This document shows, piece after piece, positions 40,341 through 58,032 of a stretch of DNA of 64,000 nucleotides. Under the pieces are notes generated by a model that made no database searches, had not been told where the DNA came from, and saw only the letters and a list, made by a program, of their open reading frames with translations. Source of the DNA: an uncultured Phycisphaerales bacterium (GTDB taxonomy: Bacteria; Planctomycetota; Phycisphaerae; Tepidisphaerales; Tepidisphaeraceae); contig CAWJPJ010000006.1 of the NCBI GenBank assembly GCA_963844715.1, positions 704,001 to 768,000 on the forward strand, in the 5' to 3' direction. Position numbers and translations under genes: made by a program. Numbering within the stretch: the stretch's first letter is position 1; each line of letters begins with the position of its first letter.

Positions 40341-42753
40341 ATGGCCAAGCTTTCAGATATTCTCAAGCTCGGAAACGCGACCCGCATCAGCTTCGGTCTG
40401 ATTCTCATCGTCCTTTCCGCGCTCGGCATCAGCTACAGCCTCGGCTACCTTCCCAGCCAGGCCGGTGCGTGCGCCCAGCGGCAGATGGAAATCGCCAAAA
40501 CCCTGGCGATCCAATTCTCGGCGGCGATCGAAAACCACGACGCCGGCGCACGTTCAAGACCTCGCCGGCTCGATCGTCGGGTCTCTTCCCGACGTGGCCA
40601 GCATCGGCCTGCGCGGCGTAAGCGGAAATCTCATTTTCGCCACCGCCGATCATGCGGCTAAATGGCAGATCGCCACCACCGCGAAATCCTCCGACGGTCT
40701 TCTCCCCGTCAACGTCGAAATATTCGATCACGACAAGGTCTGGGGCCGATTGGAACTGACCTTCAAACCCGATCCAGTCAGCCCCCAGCGTGAACTACTC
40801 GCCCTCTTCATTTTCGTTACCGCTTCATGCATGCTCGGGTTCATCCTGTTCATGAAGCGAACCCTCCACATTCTGGATCCGTCCCAGGTCATTCCCGAGC
40901 GCGTCCGAGCCATGCTCGATACCCTGGCCGAAGGCGCCGCCATCGTCGACGGCGACGGGCGCATCGTTCTCGCCAACCAATCCCTCGCCGGAATGCTCAA
41001 CACCGCGCGCGATCAATTGCTCGGCGTGCGCCTGGCGGAACTCCCCTGGGTCAATCGCGCCCCGCAGAACGCCGATTCGGATCCCCAGCCCATCCAACTT
41101 CCCTGGGATGACTTTTCCAACAAGGTCGATTGCCGCGGAAAAATGGTCCAACTGAAAACCGAGGCCGGTTCGCGATCCTTGGTCGTCAACGCCTCCAGCA
41201 TTCTCGACGGGCGGCACGGCGTCCGCGGCGGGGTCTTCACCTTCGACGACGTCACTGGAATCGAGCAGAAAAATCAGCAGCTAGTCGAGATGGTCCAGCA
41301 GTTAGGCCACGCCCAGCAGCGCGTCCAGAAACAAAACGAGGAATTGCAACGCCTGGCGACCCGCGACGCACTGACCGGCTGCCTGAACCGCCGCGCGTTC
41401 CACGAACACCTGGCTTCGCTGTTTGCCGCCGCGAAACGGCAGAAACAGCCGCTCTCGGCGATCATGCTCGACATCGACCATTTCAAATCCATCAACGACA
41501 ACCACGGCCACGCGCGCGGCGACGAAGTTCTCCGCGGCGTCGCCGAAATTTTGCGCAAATCCGTGCGCGGCGCGGATGTGGTCTGCCGATATGGCGGCGA
41601 AGAATTCTGCATCCTCACCCCCGCCACCGATATCGACGGCGCCTTTGCCTTGGCCGAAAAATTGCGCCAGGCCGTCTCTCGCGACAAGATCTTTGAAATC
41701 GCGGTGACCGCGAGCCTCGGCGTCAGTTGCACGTCCCTGGGCATTACCACGACGCAGGCACTGATCGACCAGGCCGACGAAGCGCTCTACAACTCCAAAA
41801 ATGCCGGCAGAAATCTCAGCACACGCTTTGATCGTCTCGATCCTTCGGTCGTCAAATCCGAAGACAAGGCCGAAACCATCGTAAGCGGCGAGGAGCCTAT
41901 TCCGATTCAGGCCGTGCGATCGCTCTTTGCCGCCCTCAGCTTCCGCGACCCCAACACGGCGCAGCATTCCAAGCGCGTATCGGAAATGTGCGTCAAGGTC
42001 GGCAGCACCTTTCTCAGCGGCCGTGAACTGCTGATCATCGAAACCGCCGGCCTTTTGCACGATATCGGAAAGGTCGGCGTCCCCGACGCCGTCCTGCTCA
42101 AACCCGGCCCCCTGAACAAAGAAGAATGGCGGCTGATGCACGAGCACGACCGCATGGGCGCCGAGATTATCCAGACCGCCTTCAGTTGCCCGCAGCTTTC
42201 GGCGATCATCGCCCATCATCACGCCAGGCACGAATGGATCACCGACAGCGGCAAACTCGGGCCCGGCGAATTCATACCCCTGTGCGCCCGCCTGCTCGCG
42301 ATTGCCGACGCATACGACGCCATGACCACCTACCGCTGCTATCGCGCCGCCATGTCCACCGACGCCGCTGTGGCCGAACTGCGCCGCTGCGCCGGCACCC
42401 AGTTCGATCCGCACCTCGTCGAGCAATTCATCCGGATCGTCGTCGTCGATTCTTCCGACGCGTCTTCCGCCCAGGCCGAGTCAGACCGCCTCGCCCAAAC
42501 CCTCCGCCTTTCCATGGAGGCCGAGATGCTGGCCACGAAGCTGCTGGAGCGCGATCTGGAGTCCACCGCCGCCATCGCCCACCATCTCGCACAGACCGCG
42601 GCGTCGTTAGGCTCCGACCAAGTCGCCGAGCAATGTTCACTGATCACCCGTTCGCTCGAGTCCGCCGCCGATACGCAAACCCTGCTTGCGCAGACAAGAG
42701 ATTTGCTGGAATGCGTCGCCGGCCGCGAGACCCATGGCTCCGACAAGGCGTGA
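40341..42753 (+). CDS. Membrane sensor PAS-GGDEF-HD(-GYP-like)-Hpt-like c-di-GMP enzyme (apparent indel near 40547)
   Basis: Two TM helices; LDTLAEG PAS; DALTG, DIDHFK, RGAD-x5-GGEEF; LHDIGK and IADAYDAMT; C-terminal AHHL...AASLG. Confidence 0.9.
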
Positions 42754-43057: not shown

Positions 43058-43889
43058 ATGCCCCGATACCGAAAATCCTTTCGTTCCGCCGACATCGAAT
43101 ATCTCGAGTCGCGCCTCCTCTTCACCTCGATCCCGCTCCCAGTAATCCCCACCGGCGCGGGCCATTTGTTCGTGGTTACCAGTTCACCGTACAACGCCGT
43201 GGGTGACGGGTCGACGGACGACACGGCCGCTATTCAGGCGGCCATCAATGCCTGCAACGCAGCCGGCGGAGGCACCGTCGAGATACCCGTCGTGACGGGC
43301 GCAAAGAATATCTACGAGTTCACCCAGCTCACGCTTGGCAGCAACACCAATTTCCAGATCGACGCCGGCGCGGAGTTGCAAGTGGAACCGCTGGGCGTCG
43401 AGCCCGGAGGAGTCGTTTGCATCGAGGCTTCCCAAGTAAGCAATTTAGAGATCACCGGCGGCGGGGATATCGACGGGAACGGCGGGTCCGGCTCGACGGC
43501 GCCTAGACCGACGGCTCCAGCACCTACCCCTCCGGCGATGGCAGCCCAAGCGGAGATTTCCTGTTCAGTTTCGACGTGTTGCCAGGTGACGTCAACCAAT
43601 CCGGCGGCGTCACCATTCAGGACGTCCTCAACGTCGTGAGCAAACAAGGCTCCAGCACAAGCACCCCGCCAATTATTCCATCTTCGACGACGTCAACGGT
43701 TCCGGCTCGATCACCATCCAGGACGTCCTGGCCACCAACAGCTTCGTCGGCTCGTCGTTGCCCGCCGGCACGCCTACCGAACCGACGATCGTCATTCAAA
43801 CGGCCAACCCCGTATTGCAATCCGCAACCTCCACCGCCCTTCTGAAGAAAAAACACCACATCGCGGATGCTCTTCTAGAAACCCATTGA
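43058..43889 (+). pseudogene. Remnant of a GH28/pectate-lyase-fold protein with a dockerin-like C-terminus
   Basis: IEYLESRLLF and AVGDGSTDDTAAIQAAINAC...GGGTV are joined out of frame near 43491 to LDGA*TDG...LPGDVN...DVNGSG. Confidence 0.7.
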
Positions 43890-43960
43890 AAAATCCCTCA
43901 ATCCGCCGAGAATGGCTTTTTCTGGGGCGATCGAAGGTCCAGAAAGGCCAGGAGTACGCC

Positions 43961-45231
43961 ATTAGCAAAACCGCCACCATCACCATCGACGGCAAGTCTT
44001 ATGAATTCCCGATCATCGTCGGCACCGAGGGGGAACAGGCCATCGACATTACCGACCTCCGCGCCAAAACCGGCCTGATCACCTTCGACCCGTCCTACGG
44101 AAACACCGGCTGCTGCACCAGTTCCATCACCTTCATCGACGGCGAAAAAGGAATCCTCCGCTATCGCGGCATCCCCATCGAAGAGCTGGCCGAAAAATCC
44201 ACCTTCATCGAAACCGCGCAGCTCCTGATCTTCGGAAAAATGCCCACCGAGGAGCAAATCCACCGCTTCAGCGAGCGGCTGACCCGAAACGCCCCGCTTC
44301 ACGAAGGTTTCAAGCACCACTTCGAGGCCTTCCCCGTCGACGCCCCGCCGATGGCGATGCTCTCGGCGATGATCAATTCCCTCTCCTGTTTCCATCAGCA
44401 GTTTATCAGAATCGAAGATGAGGACATGTTCGAGGAAATCGCCGCCCGCCTCATCAGCAAGGTGCGAACGATCGCGGCGTATTCCTATCGCATGTCCTGC
44501 GGCATGCCCTACATCTCGCCCGATCCAAAAATGAAATACGTCCCCAACTTCCTGCACATGATGTTTTCGCAGCCTTACGATCAGTATTTCGCCTCGCCGG
44601 AAGTGGATCGCGCCCTCAACCTGATTCTTCTCCTCCATGCCGATCACGAGCAGAATTGCTCGACCTCAACCGTTCGCGCCGTCGGCTCCAGCAAGGCGAA
44701 TCTGTTCGCCTCCATCGCCGCCGGCGTCAACGCCCTCTGGGGCCCGCTGCACGGCGGCGCCAACGTCGCCGTTTTGGAAATGCTCGAGCAAATTCAATCC
44801 GGCAGAATCAAGCCGCAGGATTATGTCCGCCTCGCCAAAGACAAGGGGAGCGGAATTCGATTGATGGGATTCGGACACCGCATTTATCGAAATTTCGACC
44901 CGCGCGCAAAATCCTGAAGAACGCCGCGGAAAAAGTGCTGGCGCAACTCAAAGTTTCCGATCCGCTTCTGGAAATCGCCCAGGAATTGGAAGCAATGGCA
45001 CAAAGCGACCCCTATTTCATCGAGCGAAAGCTTTATCCCAACGTCGATTTTTACAGCGGAATCATCATGAAGGCGATCGGACTCCCGGTGAATATGTTCA
45101 CCGTCATGTTCGCGATGGGGAGAATGCCCGGCTGGATCGCGCAGTGGAAAGAACAACACGATGATCCAACGACGCGAATCGCCCGCCCGCGGCAAATTTA
45201 TGTGGGGCCGACGAAACAAACTTTGAGTTAA
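43961..45231 (+). CDS. gltA: Citrate synthase (apparent indel near 44908; ATT at the expected start)
   Basis: [50 protein letters not shown]. Confidence 0.95.
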
Positions 45232-45288: not shown

Positions 45289-46513
45289 ATGAAGGGATTT
45301 GCCTTGAAAATAATCCCCCTGCTTCTGGCTCTCCTTTGCTTTCCTGTCTTCGCTTGGGCCGATGCGCCGGTGAATCCTTCGGATAATCTGGCGGGTGATA
45401 TGAATCGATTTGCGTTTGATCTTTATCCTAAAACGGGTGATCCGAATGCGAATCTCATCTTCAGCCCTTACAGCATTCATCTCGCCCTGGATATCGTCGT
45501 GGCGGGCGCACGCGGCGATACGCTTTCGCAAATGCAATCGGTGCTGCATTTATCCGCAAACGATGCAACGCTTGCGTCGGCGGCGGGAAAATTGATGGAC
45601 TCTCTCCAATCGTCCGGCGAATCCGGGCCGATTGTGAAAATCGCCAACGCGCTCTGGTCGCAACTCGGGGTGAACTGGAACGCCGCTTACTTCGATTCGG
45701 TGCAGAAAGACTACCGGGCGAAACTCGCGTCCCTCGACTTCAATGACACGGAGGCGGCGCAAGACCATCAACGATTGGGTGGCTGCTCAAACGAACGACA
45801 AGATTCAAAATCTACTCGGCAAGGGCTCGATTCAGCCGCATGTTACCAAGCTGATCATCACCAATGCGGTGTATTTCAAAGGGGATTGGCTCCTGCCTTT
45901 TGACGCGAACCATACTTCGAATTTTCCGTTCCATGTGCGGGGCGCGGCGGAAACGACGCCGGCGGCGACCATGCACCAAACGGCGCAGGTGGGGTATATG
46001 GAGAACGATTCGTTCCAGGCGATCGAGTTGCCGTATGCGCATTCGAATCTCGCGATGCTGATCGTGCTGCCGAAGGCAACTGATGGATTCCCTGCCGTGG
46101 AGGCGCATCTTGATACGGATTTGCTAGGGACGATCGATAAGGGACTGGGGAACGATCGGGTGGCGATTGCGCTGCCGAAGTTCAAGTTCGCGGCGTCGCT
46201 GGACCTGGCGCAGCCGCTGACGGAGCTGGGGATGAAAGCCGCGTTTGATCCCTCGGCCGCGGACTTCTCCGGCATGGATAACCAGCGCGATCTGTATGTG
46301 TCAGGCGTGGTGCATCAGGCGTATGTGGCGGTGGATGAGAAAGGAACGGAGGCGGCAGCCGCGACGGGGATCATGGTGGGAGCGACGGCGATCATCATGC
46401 CGCCGCCGCAGGAGTTCAGGGCGGATCACCCCTTTATCTTCGCTATACGCGATAAGCAGACTGGGGCGATCATGTTCCTAGGCAGGGTTGTAGACCCCGC
46501 TAGCGGGGAATGA
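45289..46513 (+). CDS. Secreted serpin (apparent indel near 45758)
   Basis: NLIFSPYSI, NAVYFKGDW, LPKF, VDEKGTEAAAAT hinge, FRADHPFIF. Confidence 0.92.
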
Positions 46514-46593: not shown

Positions 46594-47017
46594 AGGGCCG
46601 GCCGAAGGATGCATAAGTAAGCGCTTTTGAAATTCGCGGGCGCGCTTCGTTTGGGGTAACCTGTTGTGGGATAATTAGTTAAGTTTAATCCATGGTCTCC
46701 CCTGTCGATATGCGCGCATACCTACGCCAGAAGAGGGCAACGGGTGATCAGGTGAGCCGGTGAGGGAGCGAGGCAGTCGCCGCGGCAATTGGGTTCCGGC
46801 TGGGGTTTGTTGAATGTTCAACAAACGATAATTGCGCGACGCAATCTTTGCCGCACCGGTACTCGCCGGAGATAATTTAAGGATATATTGCATCGATCAA
46901 CGTCAGTCCGTGTCCCGGGAGAGGCGCGTCGCATTTTAATCCGTCGAACAATCGCTCAATAATTGACCAGCGTAGCGCGGTTGGGCTATGTTCCCTAGAA
47001 ATCAGGTAGCGATCCGA

Positions 47018-48715
47018 ATGGAATTGGACAAAATCTATAATAAGGATTGTGTTTCGGGGATGTCGCGGCTGGCGGCGGGAAGCGTGGATCTCGCCTTTGC
47101 CGATCCTCCGTTCAATATCGGGTACAAATACGACGTTTATGAGGACCGTCTGGCGGCGGACAAATACTTGAATTGGACGAGGGAATGGGGCGCGGCACTC
47201 ATTCACGCGCTCAAGCCGACGGGAACTTTCTGGCTTGCGATCGGGGACGATTTCGCGGCCGAATTAAAGTTGCTGTTCCAGCGCGACTTGGGGCTTGTCT
47301 GTCGTAGCTGGATCATTTGGTATTACACGTTTGGCGTAAACTGCAGGCAGAAGTTCAGCCGCAGCCACACGCACCTCTTCCATTTTGTTAAGAACGCGAA
47401 GGAATTCACGTTCAATGTGGATGCGATTCGAGTGCCGTCGGCGCGGCAATTGGTATATGGAGACGCGCGGGCTCATTCGAAAGGGCGGCTTCCGGACGAC
47501 ACTTGGATTCTTCGTCCCCAGGATGCAGCGGAAAGCTTTTCGCCTGAGGAGGACGTTTGGTACGTTCCACGCGTATGCGGCACATTCAAGGAACGTGCCG
47601 GATGGCACGGTTGTCAGATGCCTGAGCAGTTGCTGGGGCGCATCATTCGGGCGTGTTCAAATGCTGGGGAAACGGTGCTGGACCCGTTCGGGGGGAGCGG
47701 AACGACTCTGGCGGTGGCCAAGAAGTTGGGGCGTCGATTCATCGGATTTGAGTTGTCGAAAAGTTACTCGCGGCAGATCGAAATACGGTTAAAAGGCGCG
47801 AAATTCGGTGATGCCTTGCTGGGCGCGGAAGAACCGAAAGTGGTTCCCGGCCTCGCACGAGTGCGCAAGAGCGAAGAAAAGGCCACGCAAGCGCCGGATT
47901 TAAAGCCGCTGACGAAACGATCCAACGCCGAAGAGGTTAACCGCGGGATTATGGAGGCATTTTTTTCCACGCGGCAGGGCTTTCCCGTCGATCGGGTAAT
48001 CGCCGATCCCGAGCTAAACGAGGAATTTGTGGGGATATGCGGGCGACTTGGTCTGCCTGGGAGGGCCTTCGATTGGAATCAGCGGCTGATGAACTTGCGT
48101 AAGGCCGGGCATTTGAAGGGCATCCCTCACTCGCTGCGCACGACGTTTCCGCTGGAGGACAGGCAGTTCTACCGTTACAAGTTTGCCTGCGAGATCGCGA
48201 TACAAACATTCGAGCAGGCGGGGAAGACGACGCTGGACCAGGTTTTGTGCGATCCCGAAATGGCCCGTGACTTTGATCAATACGTTCGCAAGATGCTCCC
48301 CGACCCAGACCAACCTACTTCCCTGATGATACGGTGGTTCGCACTGCGAATTCGCAAGGCGGCGCACCAGATTTCCCAGGCGTCAGCCAAACTCGGAAGC
48401 GTTATCGAGATTTCCCGCGATAGGGAGAATCCGTTCTCGTTGAATTGCTCAAAAGTGCCGGAGTCGCCGGGTTTGTATTGGTTGCACGATAAGAGCAACC
48501 ACCTGTATGTGGGTGAGACGGATAATCTTCGCGAGCGAATGGAGATTCAATTCGGGCACAAGAAATTCGATTTCTGGAAAGCTTCGCTCGGCGAGTTGCA
48601 AGTGGCCTATAAAACGGTGGATGTCCCGGACGGCGTTCTTCCGCGACATCAATCTCGTTGGATCTCCAGTTGGAGCCCCATTGGAAACTACGCGAAGCTG
48701 GCAGCGTCGAAATGA
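47018..48715 (+). CDS. Beta-class N4/N6 DNA methyltransferase fused to two helical repeats and a C-terminal GIY-YIG-like domain
   Basis: DPPF before LDPFGGSGTT; repeats DRVIADPELN...LMNLRK and DQVLCDPEM...LRIRK; PGLY-x9-YVGETDNLRER. Confidence 0.88.
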   Translation: MELDKIYNKDCVSGMSRLAAGSVDLAFADPPFNIGYKYDVYEDRLAADKYLNWTREWGAALIHALKPTGTFWLAIGDDFAAELKLLFQRDLGLVCRSWIIWYYTFGVNCRQKFSRSHTHLFHFVKNAKEFTFNVDAIRVPSARQLVYGDARAHSKGRLPDDTWILRPQDAAESFSPEEDVWYVPRVCGTFKERAGWHGCQMPEQLLGRIIRACSNAGETVLDPFGGSGTTLAVAKKLGRRFIGFELSKSYSRQIEIRLKGAKFGDALLGAEEPKVVPGLARVRKSEEKATQAPDLKPLTKRSNAEEVNRGIMEAFFSTRQGFPVDRVIADPELNEEFVGICGRLGLPGRAFDWNQRLMNLRKAGHLKGIPHSLRTTFPLEDRQFYRYKFACEIAIQTFEQAGKTTLDQVLCDPEMARDFDQYVRKMLPDPDQPTSLMIRWFALRIRKAAHQISQASAKLGSVIEISRDRENPFSLNCSKVPESPGLYWLHDKSNHLYVGETDNLRERMEIQFGHKKFDFWKASLGELQVAYKTVDVPDGVLPRHQSRWISSWSPIGNYAKLAASK

Positions 48716-49495
48716 AGGACGACCCGGTGAAGGTGGCGTTTCAGGAGATTCGAGAAGGTCGATCTCCCGAATTTGTGATCTGCGATCCAGCATTCAACGA
48801 ACGATTTCTCGCGGCAAGCCGGCGCACTGGGGGTGGGAGGAAGTGACGGGGAAATCAATACGTGATTGCTCAATCTGCGCAAGCGGAACAAACTGAAAGA
48901 TTGTCGAACGACTTATCGCAAGAAGACCGATTCCAATCGCCGCCACTATCTGAATCTGGTTTCGAACGTAATTCGGTTGGTCGAGAGGCAGTTCGGGAAA
49001 ACCGTCGACAACGTCATTTGCGATCCCGAGATGAGATCGCAGTTTGACGCGATGATCAAGTTCTTAAGTCCCAGCGCTTCACCTTTCGAAGCTGAATATA
49101 CGGCACTTAGTCTACGGAAAACCAATCGGCTTAAGCCCGAGCCAGTGGGACAAATCATTGGCGCGGTGACCAGCAACATCGTCGGTTTGGCGGATTTGGA
49201 ACCCCGACTAATTGAGGTTCCGAAGAATCCCGGCGTATACGTATTTTTCGACGAGGACACCACCTTTTACATCGGAAAAGCGGACGATTTGAAGCGGAGG
49301 ATAGGCGGCCATATCTCGTCCTGGACCTATCGAGAGATGATCCATCAGATTCGCAAGAAGCTCAGGCCCGACGCCTTTGTCGCATACCACGAGCTTCCCG
49401 TAACAATCTCGCCCAGAGAGTTGGCTGCATATGAAACGGAACTGATTCGGTCCAGAAAGCCGCAACATAATCGCGCCGGCCGGCTTGGCGAATAA
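48712..49495 (+). CDS. GIY-YIG nuclease with the same two N-terminal repeats (apparent indel near 48823 and in-frame TGA at 48863; possibly a pseudogene)
   Basis: ATGA overlap with the MTase; EFVICDPAFN...LLNLRK, DNVICDPEM...LSLRK, PGVY-x9-YIGKADDLKRRI, E..LI....P.HN. Confidence 0.8.
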
Positions 49496-49506
49496 TTGGG
49501 GGACTT

Positions 49507-49863
49507 GTGAAAAGCATCGCGAAGAAATCGCTTGAGTTCACCAGCTTGTTTGAAGCAGAGCTTCTCGTTGGCCTTTTGCTTTGGAAATGGGGGCACCCTC
49601 TCGCAGGTGACGAAGAATTTGCCAACACCCTGCTGGAGGAGGCATCCATCGCGCTTCGAGAGGCAATGGCCGGGAAGCAACTCATTGAGTCCGTGCCGGC
49701 AAGCCAGTTGAATTTCGTCGCCGCGGTTTGGTATGCGGAACAGTGCGGGATAGAACGAGTGGATGAATCAAAAATGGTCGAGTCAAGGCGAGCCTGGCTC
49801 TCGGCGGTCCGACGTGCGTTGCCGTCTTGCTTCTGCGATCCGTCTGACCTTCCCCCTTCCTAA
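49507..49863 (+). CDS. Hypothetical 118-aa protein, third gene of the MTase operon
   Basis: GGGGA RBS, 11 nt after the previous stop; WGHP and LPSCFC motifs; no family recognised. Confidence 0.6.
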   Translation: MKSIAKKSLEFTSLFEAELLVGLLLWKWGHPLAGDEEFANTLLEEASIALREAMAGKQLIESVPASQLNFVAAVWYAEQCGIERVDESKMVESRRAWLSAVRRALPSCFCDPSDLPPS

Positions 49864-50042: not shown

Positions 50043-50209
50043 TAGAGCGGTTTGCGGCTCCACGTGGCGAGCCAGTTGGCCTCGGCTGCAACGGAGGCAA
50101 GGATGAGCGGCGAAGCGTATCAGAAAATCAGATACGTTGAGCCGCGAAGACGCGGCATCCGTTGCAGCCGTGGACAAATGGCCGCTACGCGGAGCCGCAA
50201 ACCGCTCTA
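50043..50209. mobile_element. MITE-like element with ~55-bp imperfect inverted repeats
   Basis: TAGAGCGGTTTGCGGCTCC...CGGCTGCAACGGA mirrored by TCCGTTGCAGCCG...GGAGCCGCAAACCGCTCTA; no plausible gene inside. Confidence 0.65.
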
Positions 50210-50279
50210 ATCCCCGCCCGTCCTGCGGAAACTAGTGGAGGACCGGGGGAAGGAGGATGAGGAACTCTGGGCCAGGAAA

Positions 50280-50317
50280 AAGAGATCCGGTGCAACAAGT
50301 TGCACCGGCTTCGCGGG
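50280..50317. repeat. 38-bp palindromic repeat, copy 1
   Basis: AAGAGATCCGGTGCAACAAGTTGCACCGGCTTCGCGGG; identical at 54956-54993. Confidence 0.85.
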
Positions 50318-50326
50318 AGGGCGGGT

Positions 50327-51355
50327 TCAGTTCGTCCTAATCGCGGCGGCTCTGCGTCGGGCCAGGACTGCCGGGGCGGCGAGCAAGACAAGCGAAAGCG
50401 AGGTTGGTTCCGGAACGGTGACTTCAAAACTGTGGGTATCGCCGGTGGTGTCAAGGTACTGCCCCACCACGACGTTGCCGTCAATTCCCCCGAGGTAGGT
50501 GCCGCCAATCACTCCAGCCAATCCGCCGAGGAAGATGTCGCCCTCGGCGGGCAATGCCAACGGGTCGTCCACGGTGGTGAAGGTTCCGCCGTCGTCCAAA
50601 AAGCCGTGGACGCCGGCGGCGTCGAGATACGATCCGGTGATGGTGCTGCCGGATAGGCTAAAGACATTTGTATCCACGGCCGATGGAAAATCGATCGTGG
50701 TGTACGTCCCGGCGCTGATACTGTAGGCGAAGCCGTTGTGATACCCAAAATGAACAGACGTCGAATCGCCGAAATCTCCGACGGCGGTGTCGCCGGCGAC
50801 ACCGAGCAGTACGGTTCCCCTGTCCGGAGTAGCCGACGGATCGTCCACGGTGGTATAAACGCCGGTAAGAGAATCGTAGATAAATCCATGGTCGACGCCC
50901 GATTTATCGAAGTATGCACCAACGATGGTATTGCCGGAGACTCCCAGCGCCTCTGTGCCGCCAACCACCGCCGACGCAGGACCGGCAATCGGCGTATAAA
51001 TGCCGCTGGTAATGTTGTAACTGAAGGAGAATACGGAAGTATCTGGGAGCGAATAAAACCCGACCACGGTGTTGCCGGAAATGCCTATCGTGTACGTCGA
51101 TCCGCCGGTGCCTTCCGCCGGGTCATCCAGGGTGGTGTAGGTGCTGCCATTGTAGAGGAATCCATGTCCGATGTTGGAGGAATCGAGGTAGACCCCGCTC
51201 ACATAGCTGCCGCTGATGCCCTCGGCCAAGGTGCCTTGGCCATTGGCGGTACCGGCTGATGGGTCATCCAATTCGGTGAATGTAAACCCGGCGGCAGCCG
51301 GCCTGGGGAGGACCACCAAAAACGCCAACGAAAGCAGAAAGATGAGTTTTCGCAT
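50327..51355 (-). CDS. PEP-CTERM protein with HGF-type repeats (beta-propeller-like)
   Basis: Signal peptide; repeated GISG..VG.Y.D....HGF.Y...YTT.DDP; VPEP-TM-RRR. Confidence 0.88.
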   Translation of the reverse strand: MRKLIFLLSLAFLVVLPRPAAAGFTFTELDDPSAGTANGQGTLAEGISGSYVSGVYLDSSNIGHGFLYNGSTYTTLDDPAEGTGGSTYTIGISGNTVVGFYSLPDTSVFSFSYNITSGIYTPIAGPASAVVGGTEALGVSGNTIVGAYFDKSGVDHGFIYDSLTGVYTTVDDPSATPDRGTVLLGVAGDTAVGDFGDSTSVHFGYHNGFAYSISAGTYTTIDFPSAVDTNVFSLSGSTITGSYLDAAGVHGFLDDGGTFTTVDDPLALPAEGDIFLGGLAGVIGGTYLGGIDGNVVVGQYLDTTGDTHSFEVTVPEPTSLSLVLLAAPAVLARRRAAAIRTN

Positions 51356-51421
51356 TTGCCTCTCCCGAAAAAAGATGTTCCTCCATCAGTCGAGAGAACT
51401 AAATGTGAAGCGAACCATAAC

Positions 51422-52211
51422 CTAATGGTCCGCGTCGCCTTTAGTTCGTCCCCTCCGTCGCGCCAGGACTGCCGGGGCGGCGAGCAATACGAGGGAAAGC
51501 GTGGCCGGTTCCGGGACGGCGGTGGTCGTCACGCCCACGGTCGTGAAATCGACGGCCCAACCATCTCCACCGTTGCCGCCTTCGTCGATGGAGAGGGTCA
51601 AAACATTTGAAGGGCCCAAGGTCGAGGGCGAGATGCCAAGCGTGACGTATTGCACTATTGGCCCGGATTGGTCGAGCGACTCCAGCAAACTGGTTAACGC
51701 CGGAGGCGCTGGCGCCGTTGAGCGTTATGTTGAAGGGCTGTCCAAAAACGGGAAACTCAAAATTGTCGGCGGCAATACCAAGGGTCACGGTCTGAATCGT
51801 TGAATCGGCTGGCACAAGAGAACTGTAGTCCATGGTAATGACATCCGGCCCGCTGATTCGGTCAGGAGAGGACGAATATCCGTCATCGCTCGCGGTTTGG
51901 ACGCTGCCGACGTAGATTTGGTCGGTGCCGGGAAAATCACCAGGCGAGGGCGTAAAGGGAAAAGTATGCGCGTACGATTTCGTCGCCAGACTGCTGACGT
52001 TCGGCGCCAAACCGATTTTCGTGGCCCCGGCGGTCGGATCGTCGGTGCCATAGGCGCCGGTCCCGAGGGCATCTTCGGTGCCGTAGGTTTGTACGCCATC
52101 CGCATGAGCTACGGCAGGCCGCAATATCAAGGGAACGGCGGCGAGCAATAAACCCATCGCGGAAAGCGAAGAAAAGTTCAAAAACGAGAAGTTTTTTGAA
52201 ACGGCAAGCAT
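51422..52211 (-). CDS. PEP-CTERM protein of unknown function (apparent indel near 51700)
   Basis: Signal peptide ending AHA; acidic body; VPEPATLSLVLLAAPAVLARRR. Confidence 0.8.
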
Positions 52212-52763
52212 TATCTTCTCTCGAATCGAAGTGAAGATGATCTGCCGGAAATCAAAGCAACACGATTTCCACCGATCCGGCGTCGCATCACACTCCCGCC
52301 GGCAAGTTGCAATTTCCCTGCCCTTTCGCGTGTTTGGGAACGGGTATGTTCGGACGTGACAATACGAACATCGCGAGAAGGCTTGCAAGGAAATTTGCGC
52401 GGGTTTCAGCTGGAAAACACGTTAAATCTTGCGCGACTTCCTTGCTGCAACCGGTCATTTTGGGAGGCGCATAGTGTGAGCCGAGACGACCAAGGCGTGA
52501 TCTGTCGCAAGAGCCTCCAAGGATGGCGCAAACGATCACTCAACCACCTGGCAATTTAGGCAAGAAATTGGGGGGCGCGATCGCTCTCGGGTTGACCGCG
52601 CTATTCGTGTGGCTCAGTAGTAAAAGTTTTTTTTGTGGCCTGCGAGGTTCTCCTGATCGCGAAATTTATTGGAATCATAGCGCGGGGCTTGATCTTTCGG
52701 GGCTAGGATTTTGGCAGCATCTGGGGGGATCGGTTTTCATTTCGTGTAAGGAAGGAGCCTGTC

Positions 52764-53942
52764 ATGATTCGGAATCGGCGTGCTATCATCGAACAATTGG
52801 AATCGCGGACGCTGCTTAGCGTCAATATTGGCGGGGAATTTTTGAACCTCGCGGTCACGGACCCGGCGGCGCTGGCTCCGGTGGCGGCGCCGGGGTTGGG
52901 GGTGAACATTCGTGCCAGGGCGGGGGTTCCGTTTACGAAGGAGGTTGCGTTTTATGCGTCGCCGGAGGTGACGACGGGGACGTTTACGGCGACGATCGAC
53001 TGGGGGGATGGCGTGACGTCGGCGGGTGTGGTGACGTACGGGGCGGAGGGGAACAAGCCGGGGTATGAGATCATGGGGTCGAGCGTTTACGCGGAGGCGG
53101 GGTTGTTCCGGGTCACGACGGTTTTGTCTTTGACGAGCAGCCCGGTGGGTGCGGCGGCGTCCGCGCCGTCAACGACGTCGGTTGTCGCGACGATTCACAG
53201 TGATGCGGTTGTGTCGCCGCTGGCGCGGGTGTCTCCTTTGGGCGTGACGTTAACGGAGGTGGCGGGACAGGGATTTACGGATGATGTGGGAGCGGTGTTC
53301 CTGCCGGCCGTGCAGAATGAGATTTTTACGGCGACGATCAACTGGGGGGATGGGACGACGTCGGCGGGGCAGCTCGCCCCAACGACTATCACCAATGCGA
53401 CAGGTGAGACGGAGTATGAAATCATCGGCGGGCACACGTATTCTCAGAATGGGACCTATCCGGTGCGGATTGTGGTGGATGAGACGCCGGCGGCGGTGGG
53501 TAGCGCGGCGACGGAATTTGATGTCATCCATAGCCGGATCATTGTGCAGACGGGGATTTCGCTGGCGGGGACGATCACAGGGACGTACAGGCTCTTCGAC
53601 GACAATCCCATCCGGGGTATAGGGTACGGCTTCACGGGGAGCGGGACGGCCGGGGCTTTGGGGGCGGTGACGCTGAGCGGAACAATTACCACCCCTGGCA
53701 CGATCACCACACCGCCCGAGGCCACCGGAAGAATAACGCTCAGCAATTCGAGTGGTTCGGTGACACTGCAATTGACCGGGCCGACGGAAAGCATACTGGG
53801 GCCAATCCCGGATACGATGAGTTACAAAATTCTGAGCGGGACCGGCGCCTACTACGAGGAGACGGGGAGCGGGACGATTGCGATCACCGCGCCGCCGTAC
53901 GTAGGGGGACCGCCGGTGCCGTTTACGTTTGTGATTAGTTGA
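52764..53942 (+). CDS. Secreted protein with planctomycete export motif and two PKD/Ig-like domains
   Basis: AAGGAG RBS; IEQLESRTLLS; FTATI(D/N)WGDG twice. Confidence 0.85.
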   Translation: MIRNRRAIIEQLESRTLLSVNIGGEFLNLAVTDPAALAPVAAPGLGVNIRARAGVPFTKEVAFYASPEVTTGTFTATIDWGDGVTSAGVVTYGAEGNKPGYEIMGSSVYAEAGLFRVTTVLSLTSSPVGAAASAPSTTSVVATIHSDAVVSPLARVSPLGVTLTEVAGQGFTDDVGAVFLPAVQNEIFTATINWGDGTTSAGQLAPTTITNATGETEYEIIGGHTYSQNGTYPVRIVVDETPAAVGSAATEFDVIHSRIIVQTGISLAGTITGTYRLFDDNPIRGIGYGFTGSGTAGALGAVTLSGTITTPGTITTPPEATGRITLSNSSGSVTLQLTGPTESILGPIPDTMSYKILSGTGAYYEETGSGTIAITAPPYVGGPPVPFTFVIS

Positions 53943-54053
53943 GGGGAGTTGCCAGTCGCCAGTTGCGAAACGGATGCTTTATCCCTGTGCATCGGCATCC
54001 AATCTGTGGCTAACTCGGTTTTTCCTGTCTCGCAATCTGTGGTTCCGGGCGAG

Positions 54054-54791
54054 CTACTTTGGTTTCCCCTCAAGAGACTCCCCGATCCAGGCAATCATGG
54101 CTGGTCTGGCGTGGGCCAACTGACGCTTGAGTTCCGCGAAGATGCTGCGGGAAGTGATGGCTATGGAAAGCGTTTCATCGGCGATTTTGTAGGTCACGAT
54201 CACGGTTCGGTTGTTGCGATGCGGGTAAAGTTCCACGACGTCTTTGCGGAGGATCATGTAGCGAAAACTGACGCCTTCGATTTCGACGCGATCGGGATAG
54301 ACTAGAACCAGCCCGATGTCTTCGGCCAGAAATTTGAATCTGCCGTAGGTGGCGGCGTTTTCGATCGAGACGTGGGCTTGGCGAAAATTCAACTCGGACC
54401 AGAATTGCCTGTCGTTCTCGCGGATAAATCGGGTGATCAGATATTTTTCGGCGATGGAAGGGACGAGAAACAATAGAAAGCCGCCGAGCCAACAGGTTGT
54501 TATCACCACGGCGCCGAGCGCGTCGCTGGGAAAGAAATGGTGATGGGCGGATTTTACGAGCCAATAGCCGATGGCCCAGGCACAGGGGGCGGCGAGTGTG
54601 CTGAGGACAGCTATCAACTTGATCTTGCGCCTGATTTCTTGGGAAGATCCCTTGCTGGGGAGGCAGTAGGAGATTCCAGCTTTCGCGGGGGAGGATTGAA
54701 CGGACTGGGGGCGCGATTGAAGGGCGGCCTGGCTGGCTTTGACGGCTCTGGCGCGAAAGTCCTGGTCCGTCTCGCGCGCGAGTTCTGTCAT
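54054..54791 (-). CDS. Hypothetical two-TM membrane protein (start uncertain)
   Basis: Long ORF with two hydrophobic helices; the ORF-track extension to 54899 runs through a heptamer repeat. Confidence 0.6.
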   Translation of the reverse strand: MTELARETDQDFRARAVKASQAALQSRPQSVQSSPAKAGISYCLPSKGSSQEIRRKIKLIAVLSTLAAPCAWAIGYWLVKSAHHHFFPSDALGAVVITTCWLGGFLLFLVPSIAEKYLITRFIRENDRQFWSELNFRQAHVSIENAATYGRFKFLAEDIGLVLVYPDRVEIEGVSFRYMILRKDVVELYPHRNNRTVIVTYKIADETLSIAITSRSIFAELKRQLAHARPAMIAWIGESLEGKPK

Positions 54792-54840
54792 GAGCGGGAT
54801 GTTACCTTGGACGGGGGCGGGTGGCGAGAAAGAGGGGGAT

Positions 54841-54875
54841 GGTTGCTGGTTGTTAGTTGCTGGTTGCTGGTTGTC
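54841..54875. repeat. Tandem heptamer (RGTTGYT) x5
   Basis: GGTTGCT GGTTGTT AGTTGCT GGTTGCT GGTTGTC. Confidence 0.8.
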
Positions 54876-54955
54876 GGCACGAGCCGCAGCTGAATGCACT
54901 CCCTTCCGGTCGGGCGGAAGCTAGGGAGGGGCACTGGTGGCGTCGTATCAACAAG

Positions 54956-54993
54956 AAGAGATCCGGTGCAACAAGTTGCACCGGCTTCGCGGG
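54956..54993. repeat. 38-bp palindromic repeat, copy 2
   Basis: Identical to 50280-50317. Confidence 0.85.
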
Positions 54994-55110
54994 GATGTTC
55001 GCGGAAGAATTGTTCCTCAGCTTGATCCTCTCCGATACTGCGGAAGCCATCTGAGGAGATGGGGAGGAAATGGGCGTGTCGCGCGCAGTCGCAGGACTCC
55101 GCGCGAAATG

Positions 55111-55152
55111 CCCCTCACCTTGATCCTCTCCCCATGGGTACATGGGGAGAGG
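55111..55152. repeat. REP-like CCCTCACC...CCTCTCCC...GGGAGAGG hairpin
   Basis: CCTCTCCCCATG GGTA CATGGGGAGAGG perfect stem; degenerate partial copy near 55015. Confidence 0.7.
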
Positions 55153-55197
55153 AAAGTTGTGAGGGGTTCGACGTGGCGCGGTGCGGGCGGCGCAGGC

Positions 55198-56717
55198 TTA
55201 TGTCGCGCGGCGTTTGCGCGGGCGCTGGCGCCCAGGATTGTCGCGGCGCCGAGCATCAGGCCTAGGGACATCGGCTCGGGGACGACCGCCAGGGGCGGGG
55301 TATAGATGGGCGCGTTGTTGGGGGGCGTTACGAAATTGGTGTCGTCGGCCTCGTCGTTTTCGGTGTTGCCGCCGCTTTTGACGCCGGTTTCGTTGTTTTC
55401 CAGTTCGGCTCCGGCGACATCGACATTGTCCATATAGATGTCGTTGGCGTAGTACATTTTCCAGGGGCTTTCGGTTGAGCCGAAAGTGATATTTTCAAAA
55501 TTCAGGCCGGAGATATCGGGGGTGGCGGTGTTCAGGCCATAGATCTGGGCGGCGGAGCCCAGGGAATTGGTGCAGTTGATGTTTTCCATGGTGATATTTT
55601 TCCAGATCGGTTCGGTGGGCGTCGGGGTGTAGGCGGGGGCGGGGATACTGGGATAGTTATCGCTGCCATTGTTGTAATAGCTGTTGATGACCAGGACGTC
55701 GTCGACGTTGGTCATGGTGAAATTGTTGAAAGTGACGTTCTGGACGAGGCCGCCGTTTTCGTTGTTGGTGGTGTTTCCGTCGCCGGCTTTGAGGTGGATA
55801 CCGTTGGAGATTCTGCCGCTGCTGCCGGTGTTGGCGCCGGTTTCGGTGACGTTGTTGACGTACATGCCGTTGAGGCCGGCGTTGGTTTGGCCGCCGATGG
55901 AGATTCCGTGGCCGGCGGTGATGGTGATGTTTTCGATGTTGACGTTGGCGGTATAGGCGGTCATGCCGTTGACGACGGTGGTGTCGGGTTTGGCGCAGAT
56001 GTCATCGTCGCCGTCGGAGATGTTGCAGTTTTCGATGAGGAAATTGGTGCCGGAGAAGTCTATTCCGTCGGTGTTGGCCTGCGTTTTGAGGGGGTCCTGA
56101 ATGGTGACGTCGTTGATGGTGACGTTGTTGTCACACTCGGCGACGAGGTGTTCGTTGGGGGCGTTTTCGATGGTGATATCGTTGACCTCGATGTTGGTGA
56201 GGCCTTCGAGCTGGACCATTTTGTTGTTGGAGGTGCTGGTGGCGTTGCTGTTGAGGATTCCGCCGCCGCTGATTTCGACGTTACCCGTCGCTCCGACGGC
56301 GGAGGAGACGAAGGTGGCGGTGGTTGAGAAATTCTGCAGGGTGGCGCCGGTTTGGATGTCGAGGTTGACGTTGTTGCCGAGGAGAATTTCATCCGCGTCG
56401 TAGGTTCCCGTGGGAATGACGACGGTGCCGCCGCCGTGGGACGCGGCATAGGAGATGTAATCGTTGATGACGGTGGTGTTGTTGGTGGCGATGGTGCTGG
56501 TGGTGCCGACGACGAGGACGTTGGAGGTTCCGATGGAGGGATCGGAAACGTTGGCGTCGTAGACGGAGGAGCCGATGGTTGGGAGCGTGGGGACGGCGTA
56601 GGTTTGCGCGAAGGCGGCGCACGCCGTTCCGGCCGCGAGGATCGCGGGGAGGAGAAATTTCAGGTTTCGACTTCGTTTGGCGATGAGTTTTCGTTCGTGT
56701 CTGGATTGGATCAACAT
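55198..56717 (-). CDS. GH28 polygalacturonase-like PEP-CTERM protein, paralogue 1 (true stop probably 55198; apparent indel near 55225)
   Basis: NTDGID, GDDD, GHGISIG, GIHLK; VPEP-TM, then RPRKRRAT* in the shifted frame. Confidence 0.85.
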
Positions 56718-56766
56718 ATTTCCACTCTCCTGAAGAGAATTTCCGAACCCCTTTTAACCGGCCCGG

Positions 56767-58032
56767 TCAGGCCGGGACCCTACGAGTTCGCCGCGTGAGA
56801 AAACCGATGCCGGCCAATCCGAGGAGGGAGAGGGACATCGGTTCCGGGACTGCAATGACCTGCGTTTCGATTTCGACTTGCGAGATTTCGATGCCGGAGC
56901 CGCCGGTAGCGTCGTCGGTGGATCGATAGCCGACGGCGAGGCTGTCGAAAGAGCTGGTGAGGAAGTTGCTGTTGGTGCTGGTGGAGACGGTGTTGGTGGT
57001 GTCGAGGAGATCGGCGTTGTTGCCGACGTTGGCGGACGTGCCGCTATAAAGTTGGCCGGTCATGGACTCGACGTTGGTGCCGGTGAGTTCGATGGTGAAG
57101 TCTTCCGTGTAGACGCTGCCGCCGGTGAGGTACATGTCGCCGCTGGCATTTTTGCTGCCGACGGTGGTGCCGCCGGTGTAGCTGGAGCTGCTGCTGCTGG
57201 CGTCGCTGACGAGGTCCTGGTCTCGGTTGTCGCCCAGGCTTTGGGCGGGGCGGGTGTCGATGCGGGAGCCGTTGGAGTTACCGGAGGCGAAGAGTTCGGA
57301 GACGTAGCCGATGTCGCTGGCGACGCCGCCGGTGGCGTCGTTGGTGTCGGTGTTCAGAAGCGCGTCTTCAAGATTGTTATCCGGGGCGGAGGTGCCGGCG
57401 TAGCCGGGGCTGGCCTGGGAATTATAGAGGCCGAAATAAATGGCGGCGGAGGTGGACCCGCCACTGGTGACGACGCCATTGGTGCCGTTGGTATCGGTGA
57501 AGGTGAGGATGAGGCTGATTTCTCCGCCGTTGCCCAGAGAAGCGATGGAAACGGGGGAATGGGTGAAGATGGACTCGATTTCGGCGATCTGGTTGCTCGA
57601 TTTGGCGGTGGAGAGGGTGAGTTTGCCGCTGGCGCCGGTGGTGAGAGCGCTGCCGGTGGCGAGCTGGTTGGAGGCGATGTCGTAACCGGCGGAGCTGCCG
57701 GAGGCGAGGGAGCTGTCGGTTGGCGCGGGGTAAGTCGCCGGCTGAAGGACGCTGGCGGTGGGACTGCCGTCGAACATGTCGTTGAAGACGATGGTCGAGG
57801 CGGCCAACGCATGGTTGCATATCGATGCGACCAATGTAATAGTTGCAAACACAACCGATTTTGAAACGAAAGAAACGCGGCGCGCGACGTTGCGAGCAGC
57901 GCTGAGGCGATGGGTGATGGTCAGGTTGTTCAATGGGACGCGTTTGCGCGGGACGGCGCGTGGTGTCTCGCACCGGGTTGTAATTTCAGGCCTGAGGCGC
58001 AGACTCTCGGCGCGGAACATGAGCTCCTCCAA
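56767..58032 (-). CDS. Ser/Thr-rich PEP-CTERM protein of unknown function (start uncertain)
   Basis: Long basic N-terminus plus signal helix; VPEPMSLSLLGLAGIGFLTRRTRR. Confidence 0.85.
   Translation of the reverse strand: MEELMFRAESLRLRPEITTRCETPRAVPRKRVPLNNLTITHRLSAARNVARRVSFVSKSVVFATITLVASICNHALAASTIVFNDMFDGSPTASVLQPATYPAPTDSSLASGSSAGYDIASNQLATGSALTTGASGKLTLSTAKSSNQIAEIESIFTHSPVSIASLGNGGEISLILTFTDTNGTNGVVTSGGSTSAAIYFGLYNSQASPGYAGTSAPDNNLEDALLNTDTNDATGGVASDIGYVSELFASGNSNGSRIDTRPAQSLGDNRDQDLVSDASSSSSSYTGGTTVGSKNASGDMYLTGGSVYTEDFTIELTGTNVESMTGQLYSGTSANVGNNADLLDTTNTVSTSTNSNFLTSSFDSLAVGYRSTDDATGGSGIEISQVEIETQVIAVPEPMSLSLLGLAGIGFLTRRTRRVPA

Follow-up and report, generated by a model that had tools for sequence, protein, structure and literature searches.

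What would a DNA methyltransferase (MTase) do with a catalytically degenerate nuclease module at its C-terminus and, directly behind it, a stand-alone gene for the same module with its catalytic residues complete? The question is raised by a three-gene cassette at positions 47018 to 49863 of a 64,000-nucleotide stretch of DNA (the window) from an uncultured Phycisphaerales bacterium of the Tepidisphaeraceae (GenBank assembly GCA_963844715.1, contig CAWJPJ010000006.1, positions 704,001 to 768,000), which a first-pass annotation, made from the sequence alone, had taken for a candidate restriction, defence or repair system. We propose tentatively, at chances a little short of even, that the locus is a restriction-modification (RM)-like cassette in which nuclease and MTase would reach DNA via paralogous pairs of helical repeats, and in which the nuclease domain fused to the MTase would be inactive. 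The restriction-like role envisaged earlier is thus also the reading we consider most likely.

Gene 1 (47018-48715, plus strand, as are all features of the cassette) encodes 565 amino acids (aa) from the ATG at 47018, a start point shared by its homologues; its residue numbers here count from an upstream ATG at 46988 (575 aa). The MTase domain (47084-47779) matches Pfam family PF01555 (N6_N4_Mtase; E 2.8e-49) and carries DPPF (motif IV, at 47102) N-terminal to FGGSG (motif I, at 47687) within an MTase fold, which identifies it as a beta-class amino-MTase, and Foldseek aligned it with CcrM, M.BceJIV, M.MboIIA and M.RsrI at E 1e-16 to 1e-14. In the predicted model, a low-confidence linker after the MTase leads to the module (block pLDDT 76-97), comprising repeat A (47927-48103; four predicted helices, C-terminal NLRK), repeat B (48170-48367; C-terminal RIRK) and a degenerate GIY-YIG domain (48440-48688), in which Gln555 (codon 48650-48652) occupies the site of the catalytic Glu and Gln521 that of the His, and which scores 15.2 bits in Pfam, under the cut-off of 22.6. 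Gene 2 (48712-49495) overlaps gene 1 by the ATGA at 48712-48715, is recovered by the gene 1 module in tblastn (E 4e-12) and encodes both repeats, A and B, ahead of a GIY-YIG domain whose catalytic set is complete (Glu codon 49433-49435). Gene 3 (49507-49863) encodes 118 aa of no known family, with no match in Pfam and other profile libraries, PHROGs or PADLOC models, and was found only adjoining a fused gene 1. The layout that the first-pass annotation gave for genes 1 and 3, and for gene 2 as regards the overlap and the arrangement without an MTase, was correct, but its assumption of a single intact reading frame in gene 2 failed, given the frameshift and the TGA discussed below. A scan for promoters and terminators stayed at chance level. 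G+C content at third codon positions is 0.62-0.66 in the cassette versus 0.73-0.77 in three flanking genes, and the cassette was not found in either of the two same-genus genomes searched, where loss of synteny left an empty insertion site undefinable.

The two copies of the nuclease domain differ consistently across the family. The catalytic Glu is present in 62 of 63 alignable stand-alone copies versus 0 of 53 alignable fused copies, a tally that leaves out 2 of 65 stand-alone and 3 of 56 fused proteins with an unaligned Asn, and in 5 fused copies a Glu lies within two residues of the catalytic site; the impression that gene 2 keeps the catalytic pattern more clearly than gene 1 was therefore sound. 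Gene 2 combines a match to the GIY-YIG profile PF01541 (32 bits, over the cut-off of 22.6) with the Tyr, Tyr, Arg, His/Tyr, Glu and Asn expected of the superfamily, and each of 120 homologues has Y, Y, R, H, E and N at these sites, while close homologues of gene 1 carry Gln at both the Glu and the His sites in 119 of 120 cases. When the gene 2 profile is aligned with UvrC of T. maritima, the Glu column falls on E76, and Glu76 and Asn88 stand twelve residues apart; the C-terminus of gene 1 has no such metal-binding Glu twelve residues ahead of its conserved Asn. Loss of the equivalent Glu in T4 EndoII abolished catalysis but left binding intact (PMC2764454). Over 50 paired loci the mean identity of the repeats is 0.455 in gene 1 versus 0.511 in gene 2, and that of the GIY-YIG domain 0.26 versus 0.554. 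Because gene 1 has kept its repeats almost as well as gene 2 has, but not its GIY-YIG domain, we infer that selection on the fusion of MTase and module acts mainly on the repeats. A FastTree phylogeny places the gene 1 modules in one clade (support 98) and gene 2, together with forms bearing signal-peptide-like N-termini, in another (96).

An hhalign comparison of repeats A and B (probability 97%, E 3.5e-11) shows them to be homologous, which, with the match between the gene 1 module and gene 2, confirms a unit recurring within and between the genes; the RK pairs of the two repeats and one Asp are the same in all of the 143 copies aligned, and the repeat pair is predicted to fold into eight helices (pLDDT 94). 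The earlier failure to assign the unit to a named family was repeated in the family libraries searched (Pfam and NCBIfam), and the pair has no significant match in PDB sequences, ESM Atlas features or the Foldseek PDB and viral sets, a lack of known entries that is no proof of a new fold. A wide structural search with the repeats returned mainly homeodomain, Myb-type and winged-helix (wH) DNA-binding domains, covering one repeat each time, and each repeat alone aligned with such domains at Z 5.2-5.7. Middling alignments that bear on a Myb/SANT/homeodomain-type three-helix fold with a basic C-terminal recognition helix are those with 1k61 (Z 5.7, rmsd 2.8, 60 aligned), 5cqq (Z 5.6, rmsd 2.8, 63 aligned) and 2jmw (Z 5.6, rmsd 3.2, 62 aligned); repeat A also aligned with the wH domain of DpnI (Z 4.9, rmsd 4.0, 59 aligned), and the repeat model is all-helical. 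Because the domains returned are mainly DNA-binding ones, the predicted repeat pair likely binds DNA. A relation to HARE-HTH (PF05066), prompted by an ESM Atlas row at 0.75, was rejected, with hhalign giving probabilities of 2.2% and 0.25% against 15 planctomycete HARE-HTH domains and 0 of 143 members matching the family in Pfam.

In this genome the nuclease gene is broken. The frame from the ATG at 48712 ends at a stop (48844-48846) after 44 aa, and the remainder lies in the +1 frame, where a TGA at 48863-48865 (codon 51, inside repeat A) stands directly ahead of LLNLRK; relatives carry an uninterrupted gene 2. A 1335-base contig of run X1 has zero mismatches over 47813-49148 and one base fewer, at 48826, although this evidence is a single contig at depth 6.6 and X1 is possibly the window's own sample. 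Because that contig is without the extra, frame-shifting base at 48826 and yet has the TGA, the frameshift probably arose in assembly, and the TGA is probably a genuine nonsense codon. Selenocysteine at the TGA is unlikely, given a variable column (Cys in 15 of 116) and an assembly, 85% complete, in which a search for tRNA-Sec found none. Frameshifts also split a citrate synthase gene (43886-45231), a serpin gene (45289-46513) and a GGDEF/HD-GYP gene (40341-42753) elsewhere in the window; the serpin is uninterrupted in two same-genus genomes, so that indel errors are likely common in this assembly.

A profile of gene 2 reached 633 representatives at E 1e-10, and searches recovered 218 proteins among 1001 candidates when the gene 1 module was the query and 183 among 1269 when it was an intact gene 2. 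In a scan of species genomes, 258 gene 2 loci were confirmed; among the best 80 of them (79 titled Planctomycetota, one Granulosicoccus) an MTase is present in 62, the locus itself begins within a gene 1 tail in 4, there is no room upstream in 2, no MTase in 12 and gene 3 in 36, so that the three genes are co-conserved, as first supposed, in a set that was chosen by likeness to gene 2 and hence overstates how often gene 1 has a partner. Among 301 genomes of the phylum, a sample not picked in this way, the repeat pair occurs in 13. Intact gene 2 occurs in 1 of 100 relatives, and gene 3 in 2 out of 101 genomes in one sample and 3 out of 301 in another (this genome, G000, being counted in both), every time adjoining fused gene 1. 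Of the 11 genomes of one family (f19) that have fused gene 1, 2 also have an intact gene 2, 1 has gene 3 as its sole companion, and the other 8 have neither. Several stages of loss can be seen: fused gene 1 alone (8 genomes), fused gene 1 with gene 3 only (1), an MTase ending in a stub of repeat A (the relative G019) and the nonsense codon described here. A metagenome scan with a single protein found three loci, all with genes 2 and 3, one of which (L205) is possibly the same DNA as L033. Carriers were sought in viral contigs, plasmids and PHROGs, and none was found. Among rearranged cassettes (L069, L107, L118), one has the genes in the order 1-3-2, one has a module gene of the signal-peptide-like clade running towards genes 1 and 3, and one has genes 1 and 3 but no gene 2.

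If the cassette acts on a defined site, published methylomes offer a candidate. P. limnophila has an unmatched N4-methylcytosine (m4C) motif GCGC (PMC4752239), two marine Planctomycetaceae metagenome-assembled genomes (MAGs) carry m4C at 74% and 62% of GCGC sites (PMC8919816), and in a 2026 preprint (10.64898/2026.06.24.734251) the GCGC motif is reported for every Planctomycetota genome covered. For the MAG with 74%, CM1_200m.P2, three MTases are listed: the first has CAAAT as its confirmed target, the second is TTAA-like, and the third is uncharacterised, with a negative test. This third one, compared by eye, shows the family motifs in its DPPFNIGY, RVPSARQ and GCQMPEQLL stretches (PMC8919816, Data S4); the three MTases listed for the second MAG include none of this family, and both MAGs are of very low completeness. 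In that paper, Data S3/S4 use the identifiers CM1200mP2_5150 and CM1200mP2_32760 the opposite way round from the text. In 20-kb samples the mean observed/expected ratio of GCGC is 0.70 in 10 genomes with the MTase versus 0.92 in 10 in which none was found, in groups that differ in GC and include kin, one sample being just 3.6 kb; genome-wide word avoidance singled out no target site. By elimination from the published methylomes, we consider it about even odds that the mark is m4C in GCGC. M.BamHI is an example of a DPPF beta-class enzyme able to write m4C.

We picture the RM-like cassette as follows. The repeats would bind DNA in the manner of helix-turn-helix (HTH) units, touching it with their invariant RK pairs; gene 2, bound via its repeats, would nick or cut unmethylated DNA, and the gene 1 repeats would bring the MTase to the same sites, where methylation, possibly m4C in GCGC, would shield them. 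The dead nuclease domain of gene 1 would serve at most as a binding scaffold or decoy, and gene 3 may regulate gene 1 in an accessory role. Loss of the nuclease is frequent and leaves the MTase as an orphan, a course on which this genome apparently stands part-way.

The closest parallels are the Type II RM systems with GIY-YIG nucleases (Eco29kI, Cfr42I, Hpy188I and the m4C system M.DraR1/R.DraR1), which likewise pair an amino-MTase with a GIY-YIG protein bearing the full catalytic set, and gene 2 has in common with them the linkage of a nuclease gene to a DNA MTase gene. Such nucleases have no added domains (PMC1564403), whereas gene 2 has two N-terminal helical repeats and matches no PADLOC model of a restriction endonuclease, which sets it apart from single-domain enzymes of the Eco29kI, Hpy188I and DraR1 kind; in addition, the MTase here bears an inactive copy of the nuclease module, and a third gene follows. 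The gene 2 cassette most likely works like a GIY-YIG Type II system, yet outside the Eco29kI/Hpy188I/DraR1 families (PMC2441816, PMC1564403, PMC10855626). PADLOC models gave gene 2 only weak matches to UzuA and PDC-S14, falling for the most part on the GIY-YIG motif, with E no better than 1.8e-5, and gene 3 none, so no known PADLOC system was recognised. Type IIG/IIC enzymes join an active nuclease and a gamma-class MTase in one chain; gene 1 was rejected as one of these, its MTase being beta-class and its fused nuclease without the catalytic Glu. Gene 1 resembles CcrM, M.BceJIV, M.RsrI and M.MboIIA in the order of DPPF and FGGSG, in fold and in persistent, mostly single-copy presence, but structural-alignment identity is just 25-28% and the C-terminal repeat-GIY-YIG module occurs in a subset; the MTase of CM1_200m.P2, the closest member ever put to the test, with a negative result, is a module-less orphan unlike gene 1 (PMC8919816). 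The modification-dependent wH-GIY-YIG nucleases Ahi29725I and Apa233I have an HTH-type domain N-terminal to GIY-YIG (PMC11037411), as gene 2 would if its repeats are of that type, but gene 2 has two repeats with no predicted wing strands and is linked to an MTase, whereas 87% of wH fusions in that source have no MTase nearby, and the stand-alone Type IV assignment was rejected for this reason. UvrC and Cho give the best sequence match of the gene 2 nuclease domain (1ycz, E 5.9e-8), at 17-35 bits versus cut-offs of 285-1108; the match is to the GIY-YIG domain only, the other UvrC domains are missing, and the assignment was likewise rejected. A literature search that mostly did not extend to subscription papers found no description of the architecture.

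Several observations, besides the selection bias in the linkage counts, weigh against the RM-like reading. Foldseek found nothing for the repeat pair, and the structural matches of the repeats are middling, with the best at Z 5.9, values below 8 possibly reflecting a common arrangement according to the tool itself. The 40 largest clusters of neighbouring genes include no recurrent defence gene. Depletion of GCGC is mild in this genome (observed/expected 0.90), and among the MTase contexts compared it is weakest near gene 2 cassettes, at 0.81 versus 0.58 for fused-only and 0.70 for orphan MTases, the opposite of what active GCGC restriction would lead one to expect. Whether or not the module is attached, the recognition loops of the MTase are conserved, and its specificity therefore does not depend on the repeats. 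The closest profiles of the gene 2 nuclease domain are UvrC, Cho and DEDD-exonuclease, not restriction enzymes. Finally, the MTase is present in 83 of 101 relatives (a tally that includes G004), mostly without the module, in the pattern of a housekeeping orphan.

These last points have a natural place in an alternative that we consider unlikely but the strongest of the rivals, namely methylation-coupled repair or strand marking, in which the MTase is a lineage-wide orphan, gene 2 would nick hemimethylated, mismatched or damaged sites, and the gene 1 repeats would be readers steering maintenance methylation. Vsr serves Dcm, and MutH reads Dam marks, in a comparable way. The MTase occurs, mostly as a single copy, in 24 of 24 genomes of one family, and in 47 of 301 phylum genomes, there too mostly without the module; the fused form is the only copy found in 8 genomes, and the cassettes lie among housekeeping genes, with synteny conserved in some subclades. 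The affinity to the UvrC, Cho and DEDD-exonuclease profiles and a GCGC content no more depleted where gene 2 is present also speak for it. However, gene 2 is too patchy and too repeatedly lost, as the f19 genomes and the relatives show, and the range of proteins to which the module is attached fits a repair partner badly. The lineage-wide orphan MTase family and this mobility of the module had, like the broken state of gene 2, been overlooked in the first-pass annotation. Beside them stands a module-less MTase paralogue in the same genome (C7:42354-43136, L125; 52% identity to the gene 1 MTase); on a quick, midpoint-rooted tree this paralogue falls among the resident copies of its family and gene 1 among the cassette forms. 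L125 and its family-level orthologues have a conserved C-terminal tail with a TDAFGR-like motif.

Outside the cassette, the module is fused to HicB-type ribbon-helix-helix, HTH_3, DUF6575 and Eco57I-type proteins (81 of 150 representatives scanned). A separate clade of repeat-repeat-GIY-YIG proteins has signal-peptide-like N-termini with the Glu intact: by a hydropathy heuristic, 30 of 38 clade representatives with an N-terminal extension have such a hydrophobic stretch versus 4 of 53 others. A neighbouring MTase is missing in 11 of 12 clade loci, L107 being the exception, and 11 of the 12 gene 2-like loci without an MTase bear the motif of this clade, L075 having been classed there by hand; the clade loci without an MTase neighbour (L080, L089, L092, L097, L102, L103, L105, L106 and L108-L110, and a subset of P0252-P0386) are in many cases titled Pirellulaceae. 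The clade is possibly a family of exported nucleases, and an MTase beside gene 2 forms and none beside exported-type forms is what one would expect if a cytoplasmic nuclease needs protection, which speaks for the RM-like reading. A wider proposal of a phylum-specific system, which we regard as unlikely, is that one new DNA-binding domain serves methylation, cytoplasmic restriction and extracytoplasmic DNA cleavage, with the writer of the m4C in GCGC seen in Planctomycetota carrying its dead nuclease twin as a targeting and decoy module and having a dedicated small regulator, and with a sister nuclease clade that is exported and hence would need no methylation. At other loci (L003, 773-2247; L004, 762-2280; L005; L026; L029) the module is fused to a HicB-type ribbon-helix-helix or another N-terminus, and in four of the five a gene of 110-145 aa, PII-like by eye, precedes it; a Dam-like MTase follows L003, and another beta-class MTase precedes L026. 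The module also occurs on a 1749-aa MTase-like protein, at its C-terminus (L009/L028, G096), on a stub of such a protein (L008, G032), and, following a sigma-factor-like gene, in the vicinity of Type I RM genes (L025, G041).

Rather improbable, in our view, is the tethered heterodimer suggested by the first-pass annotation, in which the dead gene 1 module and the active gene 2 module would together form one active site, a nickase borne by the MTase. Translational coupling (the ATGA closes gene 1 in 29 of 57 loci) and parallel subclades in the trees of both modules speak for it, as does the dead domain in the clade nearest the window, which keeps G, Y, Y, G, R and N along with the near-invariant Gln at both catalytic sites; T4 EndoII and Cfr42I, moreover, act as oligomers (PMC2764454). 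Yet 9 of 11 f19 genomes retain fused gene 1 in the absence of gene 2, the gene 1 GIY-YIG domain falls at distant loci to a mean identity of 26% versus 55% for gene 2, and the signal-peptide nuclease forms exist without a partner module. Because fused gene 1 persists without gene 2 and its GIY-YIG domain decays while the repeats are kept, the genomic data do not require a heterodimer. Least probable is a selfish, homing-endonuclease-like module that inserts at the 3' ends of genes and landed twice behind the MTase, the fused copy dying as a tolerated relic. In its favour, a wide range of unrelated N-terminal domains bear the module, MTases with and without it are intermingled on a tree (the quick, midpoint-rooted one, of 126 rows, from which no order of events is claimed), and a non-specific GIY-YIG with DNA-binding modules is the layout of homing endonucleases (PMC1564403). 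Against it, the gene 1 modules form one old clade whose repeats have been conserved almost as well as their gene 2 counterparts, gene 3 goes with the fusion, and viral contigs and plasmids yielded no copy.

Downstream of the cassette lies an imperfect palindrome of about 170 bases with nested inverted arms (50043-50209), MITE- or REP-like, with six more copies in the genome at 83-99% identity, followed by shorter repeated pieces at about 50217-50330. The minus-strand region 50327-58032, directly downstream of the cassette, holds several genes ending in a VPEP sorting-signal-like motif.

Here, we describe an unnamed, phylum-restricted helical repeat domain that adds to the known domains, in an RM-like architecture that is new in that MTase and nuclease share one duplicated module whose fused copy is consistently without the catalytic residue. 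As GIY-YIG restriction enzymes are few, with two subfamilies in one account (PMC2441816), a family built on accessory DNA-binding repeats would represent a new scaffold for them. The MTase is a candidate for the enzyme behind the GCGC methylation that three Planctomycetota studies have reported with no enzyme assigned, a question that bears on the difficult transformation of these bacteria. The series from complete cassette through broken nuclease, fused-only MTase and stub to orphan, in turn, lets one read off a route by which an orphan MTase may come about.

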